Part shown: piece after piece, positions 787 to 60,536 of the stretch
Layout: every line of letters starts with the position of its first letter
Numbering within the stretch: position 1 is the first letter of the stretch
Program-made: the position numbers and the translations under genes
From: Candidatus Woesebacteria bacterium GW2011_GWB1_33_38
GTDB lineage: Bacteria; Patescibacteriota; Microgenomatia; UBA8517
Assembly (NCBI GenBank): GCA_000990005.1
Contig: LBPF01000006.1
Location: 33,615-97,614 of the forward strand
Reading direction: 5' to 3'
Length of the DNA stretch: 64,000 nucleotides
Notes under the pieces: generated by a model
Databases searched by the model: none
The model's input: only the letters and a program-made list of their open reading frames with translations
What the model was told of the DNA's origin: nothing

Positions 787-807
787 TAACAAAATATTGT
801 ACGACTG

Positions 808-3814: not shown

Positions 3815-5590
3815 TTATTGAATCTCACCCAAATACTTTTTTGTTAATTCGTCTTTAGGGTCTATTTTTTCTAAGATATATTTTAACTCATTTTCAGCCT
3901 TTTCAAACTCATGAAGATCAATAAAGGTAAGTCCTAATGCAAACCTTGCATCTTTGTAATTTGGTTTTAATTCTACTGATTTTGTAAAATAAACGGCTGC
4001 GTTGTTTAAATCATTTATTTTTAAGTAATAAATACCAATTTGATAATAATTCTTTGGATCATTGGGGACATTTTTGCTGGCATCTTTTAAAGTGTCAATA
4101 GCTTCTTGATATTTAGCGTTTCTAGAGTAAATACTTGATAGTGATCTTCTGAGGTTTATATTATAGGAAGAAAGTGAGACTGCCTTTTTAGCTAAATCGA
4201 TATTCCCTTGAGATACCGCAAGTTCATTGATATATAGGGCTTCGTTAGGAGAATACTTTAAAGATTTCAAAATTTCTTGTTTAGCCATTGGTAAATTTCC
4301 TGATTTATTAAAGAGTTTGGCTTTATTGTAGTGAATGTCAGCCAGCCAATATCTAGAGATCATAAGTAATAAGTAATAAGTAATAAATATAACTCCAACA
4401 ATAAAAACCCATTGCATTATGTTTGATTGCTTCAGTTTTTGCCATTCTACATCCTGCTTACTACTTACTACTGCCATAGCTGGGAACAAAAAGAACAAAA
4501 GTGAAACTGGAACAACTGAAAAGCCAAAGAAATTTGTTATTAATATTCCAACATATCCTGTTAAAAATTCATATCTTTTGGATTTTAGTAAAACGTAAAG
4601 AGTAAAAGTAATAATTACTAAGTAACTTAAAAATCCTAATATTCCAGTATTTGCCAAATAATTTAAAAATTCATTGTGTGCCTTGTTATATATAAAGTCC
4701 CACTCAGAAGTTAAGTTGTGTTCCATGGGTTTATAGACTGGAAAGGAAAATGCAAAAGTTTCAGGACCAGTTCCTAGAATTGGATGAGATCTAAAAACAT
4801 TGAAGGCACCCAGCCAAACATACTTTCGAATGGTTCCTGACTCTGTACCACCAACCTCAAGGGCTGGACCGCTTGAAACAGTAATCAGTGAACGGTAATC
4901 AGTGAACGGTGAAGAAAAAATAAAAAATAAAATTAAGAAAGAAAAATTAAGAATTAAGAATCCTTTTACAAACTTAAATTTATTTTTATAAAATATAAAT
5001 CCCCAGAAAATTATAAATTCAATACCAAAAGACAAAAGACCAGATCTTGATCCTGTAAATAATAATGTAACAAAAAATAAAATAGAAAACAGGCTATAGG
5101 CTATATGTTTCATGCTATATGCCCAAGTAATTGGAATTAATGCAACCAATATTGCAGCAAGCCAATTGGGTTGCCCAAGGGTTGAAAAAACTCTGGTTTG
5201 TACATCTTGTACCCAACAAGATTCTGTCCATCCCAAATTCATTAATCCGCAAGTTATAAACAGGCCAAAATGTTCGAGGATCGCAAGTATGCTTGCTATA
5301 AAAGTAGAAAGTAGTACGTAGTATGTAGTATGTAAAGCTTGCCTTTTGCTTAAATTGCTGACGAAGGCCCAATATAATAGGACGTAGCAGATTTGAGAAA
5401 TTAGGCCTCCATTAAAGCGTGAATAGTAGCCTAAAATTGAAGTTCGTGGGTCAATGGAAAAAAGTGTACTAAGTAAAAAGAAAAAAAGATATAAAGTGAG
5501 TGGAATATCTAGTATTGTGCGACGAAAGATAAGTTTCTTTTGGAGTATTGATTGATAGGACCAAGTAGTTACAATTAATGTGGTCATCAT
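3815..5590 (-). CDS. Polytopic membrane protein with O-antigen-ligase (Wzy_C)-like core and C-terminal TPR repeats
   Basis: Many transmembrane segments; a TPR-like C-terminus (YYQIGIYYLKINDLNNAAVYFTKSVELKPNY). The start is ambiguous: the longest ORF runs to 5782 (GTG) but would overlap divergent mreB by more than 90 nt; Met codons at 5590/5587 avoid the overlap. Confidence 0.55.
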   Translation of the reverse strand: MMTTLIVTTWSYQSILQKKLIFRRTILDIPLTLYLFFFLLSTLFSIDPRTSILGYYSRFNGGLISQICYVLLYWAFVSNLSKRQALHTTYYVLLSTFIASILAILEHFGLFITCGLMNLGWTESCWVQDVQTRVFSTLGQPNWLAAILVALIPITWAYSMKHIAYSLFSILFFVTLLFTGSRSGLLSFGIEFIIFWGFIFYKNKFKFVKGFLILNFSFLILFFIFSSPFTDYRSLITVSSGPALEVGGTESGTIRKYVWLGAFNVFRSHPILGTGPETFAFSFPVYKPMEHNLTSEWDFIYNKAHNEFLNYLANTGILGFLSYLVIITFTLYVLLKSKRYEFLTGYVGILITNFFGFSVVPVSLLFFLFPAMAVVSSKQDVEWQKLKQSNIMQWVFIVGVIFITYYLLLMISRYWLADIHYNKAKLFNKSGNLPMAKQEILKSLKYSPNEALYINELAVSQGNIDLAKKAVSLSSYNINLRRSLSSIYSRNAKYQEAIDTLKDASKNVPNDPKNYYQIGIYYLKINDLNNAAVYFTKSVELKPNYKDARFALGLTFIDLHEFEKAENELKYILEKIDPKDELTKKYLGEIQ

Positions 5591-29281: not shown

Positions 29282-29611
29282 ATGAAAAAAGAGCTTAATA
29301 TTGGCTTGCCTGCAGGCAGGCAGGGGTTTATTCAGGCTTTGGGTGTTACCATTTACTGTGGTCTTGTTGGTTTGATTATGTGGAATGGTGATCAAATTTT
29401 TGGCAAAGTAGATACTTTTATAGCTCCAATAACTGCTTTATTGATGTTCTCAGTTTCTGCACTTGTTTGTGGCTTGTTAGTATTTTATAAACCATATTTA
29501 TTATTTTTTCAAAACAAAAAAGAAGAAGCTGTTAAGGTTGTTGTTGCAACTGCTGTCTCTTTGTTTACCATCATCCTCATCCTCTTTGAAGTAATGTATT
29601 TTGTGAAATAA
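29282..29611 (+). CDS. Small integral membrane protein
   Basis: Three hydrophobic segments; the 5' end contains the GC-rich palindrome (LPAGRQG). Confidence 0.45.
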   Translation: MKKELNIGLPAGRQGFIQALGVTIYCGLVGLIMWNGDQIFGKVDTFIAPITALLMFSVSALVCGLLVFYKPYLLFFQNKKEEAVKVVVATAVSLFTIILILFEVMYFVK

Positions 29612-29648
29612 CACTTGACAGATTGTATGGTTATTGTATAATTATTGT

Positions 29649-29882
29649 ATGACTACAATTAATATATCTTTACCAATTCAATTAAAGTCTGATGCAGAGC
29701 TTTTAGTAGAGAACGGGCTCTATGTGTCTTTTAGTGATTTGGTACGAGATTCAATTAGAAAATTAATCTCCGATGCTAAATATGACCTTTTATATTTACG
29801 AACCAAAAGAGATTATAAGAACGGTAAGGCGACTGTGTTAAAAACACAAAAAGACATTGACGATTATTTCAAAAAACTTTAA
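29649..29882 (+). CDS. Ribbon-helix-helix antitoxin (ParD/DinJ-like)
   Basis: INISLPIQLKSDAELLVENGLYVSFSDLVRDSIRKLI matches the ParD pattern. Confidence 0.6.
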   Translation: MTTINISLPIQLKSDAELLVENGLYVSFSDLVRDSIRKLISDAKYDLLYLRTKRDYKNGKATVLKTQKDIDDYFKKL

Positions 29883-29887
29883 ACTAA

Positions 29888-30151
29888 TTGAAAGTGTACA
29901 AATTAGTATTTTCAAATAAATTTGAAAAAAGATTAAAAAAATTAACATTTTCAAATAAACCCTTAAAATTTCAGGCTAAAAAGACAGTTGAATTGATATA
30001 CTCTGATATTGACCATCCCTCACTTAGAATGCACAAACTAAGTAATCAAAAATGGTCAGTCTCTGTTAATAAAAGTATTAGAATGATTTTAAAAATTCAT
30101 GATAATGAAATATTTATTTTAGATATCGGAACCCATAACGATGTTTATTAG
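29888..30151 (+). CDS. RelE/YafQ-family mRNA interferase toxin
   Basis: …HKLSNQKWSVSVNKSIRMILKIHDNEIFILDIGTHNDVY matches the YafQ signature. Confidence 0.65.
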   Translation: MKVYKLVFSNKFEKRLKKLTFSNKPLKFQAKKTVELIYSDIDHPSLRMHKLSNQKWSVSVNKSIRMILKIHDNEIFILDIGTHNDVY

Positions 30152-39853: not shown

Positions 39854-39884
39854 ATATCTATTTCTATATTATTATATCAATAAC

Positions 39885-42359: not shown

Positions 42360-42387
42360 ATTATATCAAGAAATTCAGCCCTGTCAA
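42360..42387 (-). promoter_or_regulatory. Consensus sigma-70 promoter (TTGACA-16 nt-TATAAT)
   Basis: Both hexamers are perfect on the minus strand. Confidence 0.6.
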
Positions 42388-55272: not shown

Positions 55273-56040
55273 TGGGGAAGTGGGGTATTAAACCCCTATA
55301 ATATTATAGGGTGTTTTCACGGGAGTGATTGTAATTTTCACGGATGATATAGTTTGATACACAATGTGGATAAGTCAAATGGCTAGCTACAGGTGACTAG
55401 ATGTTAATAACAAGAATAATAACAACAAAATACTTCACCCAATATTCTTAAGTACGGCATGTGTAGTTCTCTTAACTATTAACTGTTAATTATTAACTTT
55501 AATATCATGTCGTACAATAATACTTTTACGACGTATAGTAAATTGTTGAGTGTAGTGTAGTAAATTAATTAATAATTAAAAGTTAAGAATTAATAATTAT
55601 TTTTATGATACTGCAATAAGGTTTTTCTTGCTGTTTTACTGCTATATATGTCTTACTACTAGTGTCTAATTTCTAGCTTCTAGTTACTTATCCAACTCCC
55701 CTAAATTTTATAAAACAGAGAAGTGTCTAGTTAGCCCTAGGGTTTACGTCTTTTATCCCTGAGGCCTTTTAAAATCGATTTGGTGAGGTCATATTTGTGG
55801 CCAATTTCTAATTTCTAATTACTCTAATTATTCTAAATTTTTTCACTATAGAGCAAATATTTAAAGTAAAAATCAATAATTAATTTTTAAATGTAAATTA
55901 AGTCTATTTCTGTCAATACTATTTGTTAACTATTAATTCTTAATTTTTAATTCCCAGCGGGGGACTCTCCCCTATTTTCCCATCTCTCGTGAAAATCGTG
56001 AAAATTTTGACAATTTAATTATTTTCTGTATTATCCAAAC
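55273..56040. repeat. 770-bp ORF-free AT-rich region dense in short direct and inverted repeats
   Basis: TTTTCACGG x2 at the left edge and its inverse CGTGAAAAT x2 at the right edge; AATTTCTA tandem motifs; the ATGTCGTACAAT motif recurs at 56645. Confidence 0.6.
55282..55318 (+). terminator. Terminator-like structure: GGGGT-ATTAA-ACCCC, then the perfect palindrome CCCTATAAT|ATTATAGGG, then a T-run
   Basis: Seen directly after the stop of 54499..55272. Confidence 0.45.
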
Positions 56041-56613
56041 ATGACTGCAGAAAGACCTCACATTTTTATAGAAACCTTGTCAAATAAGCAGATAGTGTTA
56101 CTTCGTGATCTTTTCGAATTTAGAATTCGAAAAATAACATGGGACCTTGATGAAATACTAGCCGATACTCAAACTCCAGTTAAACAAGAATTTTATAATA
56201 AAACAGGTTTTGATTTTCAAGATAGACGAATCGATCAGTGGCTTGCACTGGCTCATTGGGCAAAAGCAAAAGGAGCAAATTTTGAAGAGGCTTCAAAAGA
56301 ACTTGCTGATGTTACTATACGCTGGCTAGATAATAATTATCCATGGATAGATGTAAAAAATATCTTTATTCGTTCCAATGTGCTTATGAATGGTGATGTT
56401 TTCAAGGGTCATGTAGCATGCCAGAATTGTTCAATGTTACATTTTGATGACTCCGTCTTATCCGCGACAGAAGTACTCAAACAGTCTGATGCTAATTTAA
56501 TGATTTTTCCTCGAGCTTTAGAAATGGGCAATTTTAAAAGTAACGGTAGAGTTATTGAATTTCCAGATATGAATTTGTGGTCTAGGTTATTTGGATTACA
56601 TCAAGATCATTAA
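56041..56613 (+). CDS. Hypothetical protein, possibly HAD-superfamily 5'(3')-deoxyribonucleotidase-like
   Basis: An early WDLDEILADT (DxD) motif. Confidence 0.35.
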   Translation: MTAERPHIFIETLSNKQIVLLRDLFEFRIRKITWDLDEILADTQTPVKQEFYNKTGFDFQDRRIDQWLALAHWAKAKGANFEEASKELADVTIRWLDNNYPWIDVKNIFIRSNVLMNGDVFKGHVACQNCSMLHFDDSVLSATEVLKQSDANLMIFPRALEMGNFKSNGRVIEFPDMNLWSRLFGLHQDH

Positions 56614-56652
56614 AGCTTGCAGGGTTTCACCCTGCAATGTCGTACAATGTTA

Positions 56653-56682
56653 TTGACATCTCGCCTCGATTACATGTAAACT
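56653..56682 (+). promoter_or_regulatory. Putative promoter of xer gene (TTGACA-18 nt-TAAACT), overlapped by the ATGTCGTACAAT motif
   Basis: Hexamer match only. Confidence 0.3.
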
Positions 56683-56693
56683 GATTTTAGACA

Positions 56694-57623
56694 ATGCCCA
56701 GTCAAAATAAAACTTCAGAAATTGCAAAAAAAATTGATGAATTCTTGGACTATTTAAGTGTTGAAAAGGGATCCTCTCCCCTAACGATTAGAAATTACAA
56801 ACATTACCTAACTAGGCTTATAAAATGGCTAAATGCTAAAAAGATAAATGCTAAATTAGAAAATATAAATCAAGAAGTTGTTCATGATTATCGCATATAT
56901 TTATCAAAACTTGGCTTGGGCAGAAAAACTCAAGGATACCATGCAATAGCACTTCGCTCATTTTTAAAGTGGCTTATAAGAAACGATTATCAAGTCTTAG
57001 CACCTGACAAAATTGATCTTCCAAAAATTCCTGAAAGGCAAGTCAAATTTTTGTCAGGTGAACAAATAGATAGGCTTCTTAATGCTCCTACACTTTCCAG
57101 TATTCAAGGGATTAGAGACAAAGCAATTCTTGAAGTTTTATTTTCAACAGGTCTTCGTGTATCTGAACTAACAAACCTTAATATTGAAAAAATTGATTTT
57201 GAGAGGCGTGAATTTGGAATTACAGGTAAGGGTGGTAGGGCCAGGGTTGTTTTTCTTTCATCTCGATCTGCTGATTACTTAAAAAAATATTTAAATGAGA
57301 GAAAAGATCATTTTAAACCGCTTTTTATCCGTCATAAAGGTTCAGTTGATCCAACAACTCCCGATGAAAAAATGCGCTTGACTCCCCGATCAGTGGAACG
57401 ATTGGTTAAAAAATATGTACACAAGATGAAGCTTCCTATTGAAGCTACACCCCATAGTATTCGTCACTCGTACGCGACCGATCTACTTATAGCAGGGGCT
57501 GACATTAGGTCAGTCCAGGAAATGTTGGGGCATAAAAACATTTCAACTACCCAGATTTATACACATGTCACCAATAAACAGCTTCATGAAATTCATGAAC
57601 AATTTCACGGGAGGGGTAAATAG
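56694..57623 (+). CDS. xerC: Tyrosine recombinase XerC/XerD family
   Basis: R…HxxR…Y catalytic residues (GLRVSEL, HSIRHSYAT, IYTHV) and a Xer-type N-terminal core-binding domain. Confidence 0.8.
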   Translation: MPSQNKTSEIAKKIDEFLDYLSVEKGSSPLTIRNYKHYLTRLIKWLNAKKINAKLENINQEVVHDYRIYLSKLGLGRKTQGYHAIALRSFLKWLIRNDYQVLAPDKIDLPKIPERQVKFLSGEQIDRLLNAPTLSSIQGIRDKAILEVLFSTGLRVSELTNLNIEKIDFERREFGITGKGGRARVVFLSSRSADYLKKYLNERKDHFKPLFIRHKGSVDPTTPDEKMRLTPRSVERLVKKYVHKMKLPIEATPHSIRHSYATDLLIAGADIRSVQEMLGHKNISTTQIYTHVTNKQLHEIHEQFHGRGK

Positions 57624-57625
57624 AA

Positions 57626-58639
57626 TTAGTTGAGTCTAAAATAATTATCAAGAGCGAATTTTAATTGATCGGTAAACATTTTTTTGAGATAAAAAAGATT
57701 GTTTTGCTCGTAAAATAGTAAAAGTGATCTTCGATATTCATTTACATCGACATTTCTATATGAAAGTGGAAAATAATCATATGCTAATAAAATTGCATTA
57801 GCTAGTGTTCTGGCGGTTCTTTTATTTCCATCGGCAAATGGTTGTAAATAGGCAATCATAGATGAAGCAATTAGTGCTTTTTCAGGAGGGAAAGCAGTTT
57901 TATTTATTACATCAATTATTTTCTTAAGATTATTTCCAAGTTCGATATTTTGTGATCTAATTCCGCTTGAAATTAAATTTTTTGTTAGTACTCCATGAAG
58001 CTGTATTACATCCGTAAAATTTAGTTCTTTGAAACTCTCTTTATTTTTTAAAATCGTATCAAATGCTTTCTTGTGATTTATAAGCATAACTGCTTCTTCA
58101 TGAGAATGACCTTTTGCCTCTATGTTTTGTGTAAACAATGTCTCAGTTTCCAAGAGATCATACGTATTTCCTTCAATTTGGGCGGATTTCCAGGAAAATT
58201 CAATAACAAATCGTTCCAGTTCTCTTTTATATATGCTTTTATCTAAATTTGTGATTCTGAATTTAAATTCTTTTGAAGAATCATTCCAAAACACAATTTC
58301 TTTATTTAAAAATAAATTTGTTAAATTTTTAAAAACATCGTTATCAAAACTAGGTTTGGCGTTTCTATTATCCATGTCGTTTTTAAAATAATTTTCGATA
58401 TCGATAAATTTTAAAAGTGGATTAGTTTTTTCCAATGAATATACTTTTGCTCTCGCAGAACCTGCCTGCATTATTAGGTTTTGATCAATCAGGTTATTAA
58501 GGTCACGAATTGCTGTGATTCTTGAAATTAACTTTTTTCCTGAGAGCAATTTTGTAATTTCAAGACGTGATAGACTACCTTTTCCTTCTAGGATATTAAG
58601 CATTTGTTTTTGTCTATCGTTTAATATCGTATCATTCAT
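57626..58639 (-). CDS. Fic-family protein with N-terminal winged-helix
   Basis: Fic motif QPFADGNKRTAR. Confidence 0.75.
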   Translation of the reverse strand: MNDTILNDRQKQMLNILEGKGSLSRLEITKLLSGKKLISRITAIRDLNNLIDQNLIMQAGSARAKVYSLEKTNPLLKFIDIENYFKNDMDNRNAKPSFDNDVFKNLTNLFLNKEIVFWNDSSKEFKFRITNLDKSIYKRELERFVIEFSWKSAQIEGNTYDLLETETLFTQNIEAKGHSHEEAVMLINHKKAFDTILKNKESFKELNFTDVIQLHGVLTKNLISSGIRSQNIELGNNLKKIIDVINKTAFPPEKALIASSMIAYLQPFADGNKRTARTLANAILLAYDYFPLSYRNVDVNEYRRSLLLFYEQNNLFYLKKMFTDQLKFALDNYFRLN

Positions 58640-60475: not shown

Positions 60476-60536
60476 AATATTAACTATATCAGAAAAATTT
60501 GACAAAAAGAAGTAAGAAGAGGTAAAATACCCCCAA

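Follow-up and report, generated by a model that had tools for sequence, protein, structure and literature searches.

A 28-bp dyad element in a conserved spacer of the Woesebacteria xer locus is a predicted target of the neighboring Xer recombinase

The subject of this study is a 768-bp non-coding spacer (positions 55273-56040) beside the gene for an Xer tyrosine recombinase in a 64-kb stretch of DNA from an uncultured Woesebacteria member living in groundwater, here called the window, whose numbering is used for all positions given without a contig name. On balance, we favor the view that this spacer serves the xer locus of Woesebacteria as a regulatory region, conserved and probably transcribed, and that it contains the cognate 28-bp core site of the recombinase. 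The 28-bp element is most likely the recombinase's own predicted target, because both of its arms change along with the type of the adjacent xer gene. Xer binding, recombination, autoregulation, and transcription are treated here as predictions drawn from sequence.

The comparison covers ten lineages: the window together with metagenome contig L024, which matches the window spacer at 768 of 768 positions; L001 with its near-identical copies; and L011, L013, L016, L017, L018, L021, L026, and L027. L026 is the complete genome CP011214.1 (819 kb).

The 28-bp Dyad Site

A dif site is defined by two 11-bp inverted arms and a 6-bp center (PMC5357621, PMC2958812). An earlier sequence-only reading of the window had noticed a 12-mer present both in the spacer and at the xer promoter, proposed the spacer as a candidate dif region, and recommended a search for dif-like sites with a central 6-bp spacer. 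Such a site was found at 55507-55534, exactly at the first copy of the 12-mer, and co-variation in the ten lineages supports a link between this site and xer. The features concerned are the following.

55507-55534, no strand assigned: 28-bp dyad site H1, ATGTCGTACAA-TAATAC-TTTTACGACGT, an 11-6-11 arrangement with arms symmetric at 9/11 positions
56637-56648, plus strand: half-site ATGTCGTACAAT, which repeats the left arm of H1 and ends 4 nt before the -35 of xer
56653-56682, plus strand: xer promoter TTGACA-18-TAAACT, with the -35 at 56653-56658
56694-57623, plus strand: gene for Xer-1, a tyrosine recombinase (XerC/D/XerA-like)

The dyad site is non-coding and conserved among the relatives. 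Its arms are symmetric at 7-10 of 11 positions in the ten lineages, and 83.8% of the cells pair, compared with 26-45% in slid registers. The two arms have changed together, with changes on both sides at three positions. Six of the ten lineages (the window, L001, L016, L011, L018, and L021) have type 1 sites, with GTCGTACAA-type arms and the center TAATAC in all of them. The remaining four (L013, L017, L026, and L027) have type 2 sites, with CTGAGTATAA-type arms on both sides; the site reads ACTGAGTATAA-TAAACC-TTACACTCGGT in L013, L017, and L026, and ACTGAGTATAA-TATCTC-TTACACTCAGT in L027. The full site occurs once in the window and once in the 20-kb locus of each relative. Exact arm copies are otherwise absent from these 20-kb loci; the window has one further copy.

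The arm type follows the neighboring xer gene and not the phylogeny of the flanking genes. Type-1 arms have xer-1 next door wherever the downstream gene is visible, and type-2 arms occur exactly where xer-2 adjoins. The DUF5656 protein of L017, a type-2 lineage, is 88% identical to that of the type-1 window and 74-77% identical to those of L013 and L026, which are both type 2.

Recombinase Genes and Arm Copies beside Them

The Xer protein of the window has the catalytic residues R-K-H-R-H-Y, scores as XerC/D/XerA, and shares 100% identity with the XerC protein of Cand. Woesebacteria GW2011_GWA1_33_30. It is not a XerS, scoring 130 bits with NF003462 against a cut-off of 267. The description of xer as a single gene holds for the window, but Woesebacteria have two conserved Xer paralog families. 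Xer-1 and Xer-2 are 28-36% identical to each other, and both are widespread and highly conserved in Woesebacteria/Microgenomates. With 70-88% identity in over 100 clusters, xer is a highly conserved gene of the housekeeping type.

The 12-mer ATGTCGTACAAT occurs at 55507-55518 and 56637-56648, with 0.24 copies expected. Both copies had been reported by the sequence-only reading; however, the second does not lie over the -35 of the xer promoter but ends 4 nt upstream of it. Every xer-1 seen, including the xer-1-like genes of type-2 genomes, has GTCG(T/C)ACAAT 1-4 nt upstream of its -35. In L013, L017, and L026, AAACTGAGTATAAT abuts the start codon of xer-2. L027 has no separate half-site: its full site is directly preceded by a TTGACA-17-ATTATT promoter and followed, after 68 nt, by the xer-2 start, in what looks like the ancestral layout of a site next to its recombinase. 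In the window, by comparison, 1.16 kb and a gene intervene between site and xer. One more copy of the shared motif is found far from the locus.

796-805, minus strand: GTCGTACAAT in its third exact copy, within the 20 nt separating tRNA-Thr from tRNA-Tyr

This copy lies 9 nt before the 5' end of tRNA-Tyr, with about 0.13 copies expected by chance, and it is uncertain whether it is part of the Xer system. Copies of the 10-mer with one mismatch at 5514 (inside a coding region) and 29644 (other strand, in the promoter/operator of a toxin-antitoxin pair) were judged to be chance matches. The probable toxin-antitoxin pair consists of 82-aa and 87-aa open reading frames (ORFs) on the plus strand at 29590-30151, and its promoter is a perfect TTGACA-16-TATAAT holding three ATTGTAT repeats.

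Two further observations concern the recombinase genes. LAGLIDADG inteins interrupt Xer (736/730 aa), GyrA, DnaB, and GyrB in various relatives (L001 10780-12990; L012 965-3157; L018 13996-18051 and 1-677; L026 19892-20963); Xer, GyrA, and DnaB of the window are without them. Where a genome has both xer-2 and a xer-1-like gene, a conserved ORF of 147-148 aa without a Pfam match lies between them (L017 3030-3476; L026 10960-11403; L027 10963-11406), and its product could be an accessory factor of the recombinases.

Conservation of the Locus

To the left of the spacer lie the genes for YebC and then for a DUF5656 membrane protein. To the right are those for a 190-aa protein with a HAD-like fold, the Xer recombinase, Fic (minus strand), LytR, SIMPL (minus strand), and GyrA (minus strand). 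The comparison of synteny recommended by the sequence-only reading revealed a homologous spacer, 0.48-0.98 kb long, in all ten lineages. The arrangement DUF5656, spacer, (HAD-like gene), xer, and further on GyrA is common to them, including CP011214.1, and the order YebC-DUF5656-spacer-xer-LytR-SIMPL-GyrA is kept in all relatives examined. Because the same spacer stands between DUF5656 and the xer locus in ten lineages, it is best seen as a conserved region and not as the scar of a mobile element. The variable genes are two. The Fic gene (57626-58639, minus strand), between xer and LytR, occurs among the relatives only in the same-strain contigs L024 and L025 and has the look of a recent insertion. 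As for the HAD-like gene, L027 lacks it, L026 retains a remnant, and in L016 and L021 other genes have joined or replaced it.

Organization of the Spacer

The spacer is indeed free of ORFs, as the sequence-only reading had stated: there is no ORF of at least 30 aa in 55273-56040 and no small ORF conserved among the relatives. Its AT-richness, also noted there, is only mild (28.9% GC versus 33.0% for the window). Apart from the dyad site, the spacer and the gene that follows it contain these features.

55294-55311, plus strand: perfect 18-bp palindrome CCCTATAAT-ATTATAGGG, then TGTTTT; terminator-like, just 3' of the DUF5656 gene
55314-55343, plus strand: two TTTTCACGG boxes, 21 bp apart, starting at 55314 and 55335 (TTTTCACG(G))
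55345-55353, plus strand: TGATATAGT, an extended -10-like element pointing into the spacer, invariant in ten lineages
55365-55373, minus strand: perfect DnaA box TTATCCACA, the sole perfect one in the window, twelve nt past the TGATATAGT block
55733-55802, plus strand: sequence-conserved block ..ACGTCTTTT..AGGCCT..TTAAAATCGATT.., ending in the hairpin GGTCAT-ATTT-GTGGCC
55803-55950: length-variable AT-rich part with short repeats AATTTCT and TTAATTC
55959-55979, plus strand: terminator-like hairpin GGGGGACTCTCCCC, then TATTTTCC
55988-56005, minus strand: two tandem CGTGAAAAT boxes (TTTTCACG on the minus strand), abutting the -35 of the next promoter
56007-56043, plus strand: promoter TTGACA-16-TATTAT, with 6 nt from the -10 to the ATG at 56041
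56041-56613, plus strand: HAD-fold gene, 190 aa

The inverted motifs that the sequence-only reading saw twice at each edge are present (55314 and 55335; 55988 and 55997), but they belong to two separate promoter-like blocks and not to the dif-like site. Four of the five TTTTCACG matches in the window fall in the spacer, where 2.2 are expected for the whole 64 kb. The left pair is kept in 10/10 lineages at a spacing of 20-23 bp, with one box degenerate in several. The right boxes, which read CGTGAAAA(T) at 55988 and 55997, occur once or twice in each lineage that has or had the HAD-like gene; L027 has none. A parS site (16-bp palindrome TGTTNCACGTGAAACA) was considered and set aside, with no match in the window at up to 3 mismatches; TTTTCACG resembles a half-site only. 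The perfect palindrome at 55294-55311 is likewise real and holds TATAAT on either strand. It is not the Xer site, however, and the relatives retain CCTATAAT only, mostly not as a palindrome.

The left boxes precede an invariant GATGATATAGTTTGAT, which includes TGATATAGT. The extended -10 form TGATATAAT/TGATATAGT, with no clear -35, is found upstream of tRNA and protein genes (898-906, 39871-39879, 42360-42368, 55345-55353, and 60483-60491) and may be a common promoter form of this genome. Since the same form precedes tRNA-Thr and hisS in the window, the TGATATAGT element is probably a promoter firing into the spacer. The DnaA box is perfect in 9/10 lineages and has 1 mismatch in L018. There is no cluster of DnaA boxes, and near-matches occur at background density. 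A scan of IMG/VR with the left spacer block gave no match.

The block at 55733-55802 shows no compensatory changes and is not recognizable in the distant relative L027; the window copy is short by about 26 nt relative to the relatives. In length, the AT-rich part beyond it is close to zero in L001 and ranges over roughly 110-250 bp among the other relatives. The tandem motifs described earlier do exist as AATTTCT x2.6 at 55803-55820, but within this length-variable part, which is absent from close relatives. Several independent metagenome contigs (L012, L014, and L015) start 104-176 nt before the HAD-like gene, inside the AT-rich part, which suggests population heterogeneity or low coverage there. 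Of the nine lineages with the HAD-like gene, now or in the past, eight keep the GGGGA..TCCCC stem with its T-run; in L026 it is degenerate. The AT-rich inverted repeats around the dyad (55472-55496 / 55569-55593) are kept solely in the closest relative.

The HAD-Fold Gene

The promoter geometry of this gene (TTGACA-16/17-TATNNT, with the ATG 6 nt further on and no Shine-Dalgarno sequence) is kept in seven relatives, and a leaderless mRNA appears to be its conserved design. The 190-aa protein has no Pfam or NCBIfam match. It belongs to a small family of 229-245 aa, whose structural model (pLDDT, the predicted local distance difference test score, of 78) has a HAD fold, with HAD hydrolases and deoxyribonucleotidase-like proteins as its best fold matches. 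The label HAD-like, already used in the sequence-only reading, is thus supported by the predicted fold and by no family match. The window allele has lost about 43 aa in frame, including the conserved VITTR strand. L024, otherwise identical, has a full-length allele of 233 aa (L024 16769-17470), so that the shortened allele is either a strain variant or an assembly artefact.

Replication Strand around the Spacer

Plain GC skew tracks the gene strand and is misleading here; it was replaced by the skew at third codon positions (GC3), split by gene strand. The peak of cumulative GC skew near 59.7 kb reflects only a run of minus-strand genes, from SIMPL to holB, that spans 10 kb and is succeeded by pilus genes on the plus strand. 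The coding-strand GC3 skews, those on the right being pooled by hand, were as follows.

Left of the spacer, plus-strand genes (n=38): +0.163
Left of the spacer, minus-strand genes (n=10): -0.059
Right of the spacer, minus-strand genes (n=7): -0.105
Right of the spacer, plus-strand genes (n=4): +0.165

Three relatives agree in the direction of GC3 skew. The plus strand is G-rich at silent sites on both sides of the spacer and is therefore taken to be the leading strand from -55 kb to +18 kb, the range of this analysis, of which the right-hand 18 kb represents about 2% of the 0.82-Mb genome. Within this range no strand switch marks an origin or terminus, and the locus is not demonstrably at a terminus. 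The sequence-only reading had suggested GC skew as a test of whether the spacer is the replication terminus; no strand switch was found between a point 55 kb to the left of the site and one 18 kb to its right. In CP011214.1, the spacer site lies at about 556 kb of 819 kb (about 556,031-556,058), a position that says nothing about the terminus without the origin.

Proposed Function of the Site

We propose that the neighboring Xer would bind both arms around the 6-bp center, probably as a homodimer because the arms are near-identical, and that it would also bind the isolated arm copy beside its own promoter. The full site would have the architecture for strand exchange (dif/res-like multimer resolution). 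The half-site would most likely give autoregulation of xer. Within the spacer, the putative extended -10 promoter (TGATATAGT) would be flanked by TTTTCACG boxes, with the DnaA box just downstream of the predicted transcription start. That promoter-like and terminator-like blocks frame the stretch also fits this proposal. The predicted leaderless promoter would serve the HAD-fold gene, which was presumably added in this lineage.

Several points weigh against this proposal. In the AT-rich window, 11-6-11 dyads with 9/11 symmetry are as common as chance (17 observed versus 17.6 in shuffles), so the case for the site rests on conservation and linkage, not on the palindrome. The type-2 arms may represent only one or two evolutionary events, which would leave few independent changes behind the co-variation. 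The classical terminus position of dif is not seen, there being no replication-strand switch over the range covered. Both Xer paralogs are widespread, so a classical heterodimeric dif of the XerC/D type may exist elsewhere in these genomes. Finally, an RNA explanation of the element is live, with stem mismatches mostly compatible with G-U pairs on the plus strand and the stretch probably transcribed.

Alternative Explanations

According to this RNA explanation, which we consider unlikely, a long non-coding RNA or a leader RNA of about 0.5-0.75 kb would be encoded in the spacer, beginning at the TGATATAGT promoter and stopping at the GGGGA..TCCCC terminator. The 28-bp element would then form a hairpin in this RNA, with a 3' arm able to base-pair either in cis with its 5' partner or in trans with the xer mRNA, where the identical motif occurs, so that xer would be regulated at the RNA level. 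Promoter-like and terminator-like blocks do frame the stretch on the plus strand, and the hairpin has been retained through three double changes, the mismatches on that strand being mostly U-G. The repeated motif overlaps the ribosome-binding and start region of xer-2 in type-2 lineages, the element is within the 5' leader of xer-2 in L027, and a cUUCGg-type hairpin precedes the terminator in L011. Conversely, ARAGORN and Rfam revealed no known RNA in the spacer, with no Rfam match at the gathering threshold or at E<=10. RNAalifold of the whole spacer and of the block at 55733-55802 gave weak structures without compensatory pairs apart from the dyad; the block shows no covariation, and what is conserved in the stretch is mostly primary sequence, the palindromic hexamers AGGCCT and ATCGAT among it. 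The 150 nt around the element fold no better than shuffles (z -0.3 to -2.2). Two observations favor DNA over RNA as the level at which the element acts. The xer-1 half-site is upstream of the -35 and thus outside the transcript from the xer promoter, and in L021 one arm carries an uncompensated T-to-C change, a C-A mismatch that would break an RNA stem.

The remaining explanations fare worse. It is very unlikely that the repeated 10-15-mer is a mere promoter element (a -10 hexamer TACAAT/TATAAT with an upstream extension) for the spacer RNA, xer, and tRNA-Tyr, with the dyad being incidental. The shared part does stop exactly at the 3' end of the -10-like hexamer, and the third exact copy is 9 nt upstream of tRNA-Tyr; yet no copy has a usable -35 or TGn at the right distance, and a transcript driven by the hexamer of L013, L017, and L026 would begin inside the gene, because the hexamer there adjoins or overlaps the start codon of xer-2. 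This explanation also leaves the change of the second arm in step, and the match between motif and Xer paralog, unaccounted for. Very small, too, is the likelihood of the alternative raised by the sequence-only reading, that a degraded integrated element carried in the HAD-like gene, the recombinase, and Fic and that the spacer is its boundary or att region, or of the variant in which the segment from full site to half-site (the spacer tail and the HAD-like gene) is an Xer-exploiting insertion. The HAD-like gene does lie between two direct repeats, the H1 left arm and the half-site, which are separated by 1130 bp, and the patchy occurrence of that gene and the restriction of Fic to the window strain would fit. 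However, the spacer core and the gene order from YebC to GyrA are conserved in ten lineages, xer is of the conserved housekeeping type, and the right-hand copy lacks the second arm expected of a simple integration product. The region as a whole does not come and go among the relatives; variation is confined to Fic and, in some lineages, to the HAD-like gene. Least credible of all is that the spacer is the replication origin, with its DnaA box, AT-rich repeats, and gyrA/gyrB/dnaB nearby, or the terminus. The invariant perfect DnaA box, the short AT-rich repeats, and the cumulative skew peak at convergent genes could be cited in its favor; but the box is single, the skew peak reflects the minus-strand gene block only, and the GC3 skew of the plus strand has the same sign for both gene orientations from -55 to +18 kb. 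As a candidate oriC, the spacer was rejected, having one perfect box in place of a cluster and no skew switch.

Relation to Known Xer Systems

The predicted Xer site resembles the chromosomal dif sites of XerCD systems (E. coli, B. subtilis) and archaeal dif/XerA in its 28-bp length, its 11-bp inverted arms, its 6-bp center, and the A-rich inner arm end (..TA(C/T)AA-N6-TT..), and the recombinase is of the XerC/D/XerA family. The near-perfect symmetry of the arms fits a single recombinase species, as with XerA. Like dif of Thermococcales (PMC2958812), the site is non-coding and conserved among relatives, with conserved flanks. In contrast to classical dif, there is no GC-skew switch within -55/+18 kb, a separate half-site is present at the xer promoter, and arm specificity is swapped between two Xer paralogs; in E. 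coli and archaea, dif is not next to xer, whereas the site here is beside the xer locus. In XerS/difSL of streptococci and lactococci, recombinase gene and site are genetically linked as a module (PMC5357621); the locus here shows such linkage too, the site of L027 being 68 nt upstream of xer-2. However, the protein is not XerS, the center has 6 bp and not the 11 bp of the 31-bp difSL site, 1.16 kb and a gene lie between site and xer in the window, and xerS/difSL is at the terminus.

ColE1 cer, with its Pcer promoter and Rcd RNA, is similar in having a core site within a few hundred bp of conserved non-coding DNA and a promoter-like hexamer in or next to the core; Pcer, inside cer, is repressed by the proximity of XerCD (PMC4393325). 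Unlike at cer-type sites, no PepA, ArgR, or ArcA sites were identified here, and that the flanking blocks play an accessory role is no more than conjecture. In Tn3 (res-tnpR) and Tn4430 (IRS-tnpI), the site is upstream of the recombinase gene. The same holds for the present locus, where autoregulation is likely; in contrast to such plasmid and transposon sites, it is chromosomal and conserved across a phylum-level clade.

Implications for Dimer Resolution in Woesebacteria

A more far-reaching proposal, which we regard as speculative and rather improbable, is that chromosome dimers of Woesebacteria, and perhaps of other bacteria in the candidate phyla radiation (CPR), are resolved at a site beside the xer locus and not at the terminus. 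Selectivity or cell-cycle coupling would then come from accessory DNA (the TTTTCACG boxes, the DnaA box, and the conserved block at 55733-55802) and from local transcription, and not from FtsK at the terminus, with the arms being re-specified when the resident Xer paralog changes. If true, this would be a chromosomal, cer/res-like, position-independent module for dimer resolution. We found no published description of dif or Xer sites in CPR/Patescibacteria. The locus offers a concrete candidate, with a 28-bp site, a pair of Xer paralogs for which two arm specificities are predicted, and naturally occurring 'swap' variants. Next to nothing is known of regulation in these organisms, and the locus also points to a conserved regulatory region with a promoter, a DnaA box, and a putative TTTTCACG-binding factor. 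Should the candidate be confirmed, it would reveal how a recombinase and its target evolve together and whether these tiny genomes resolve dimers independently of the terminus.

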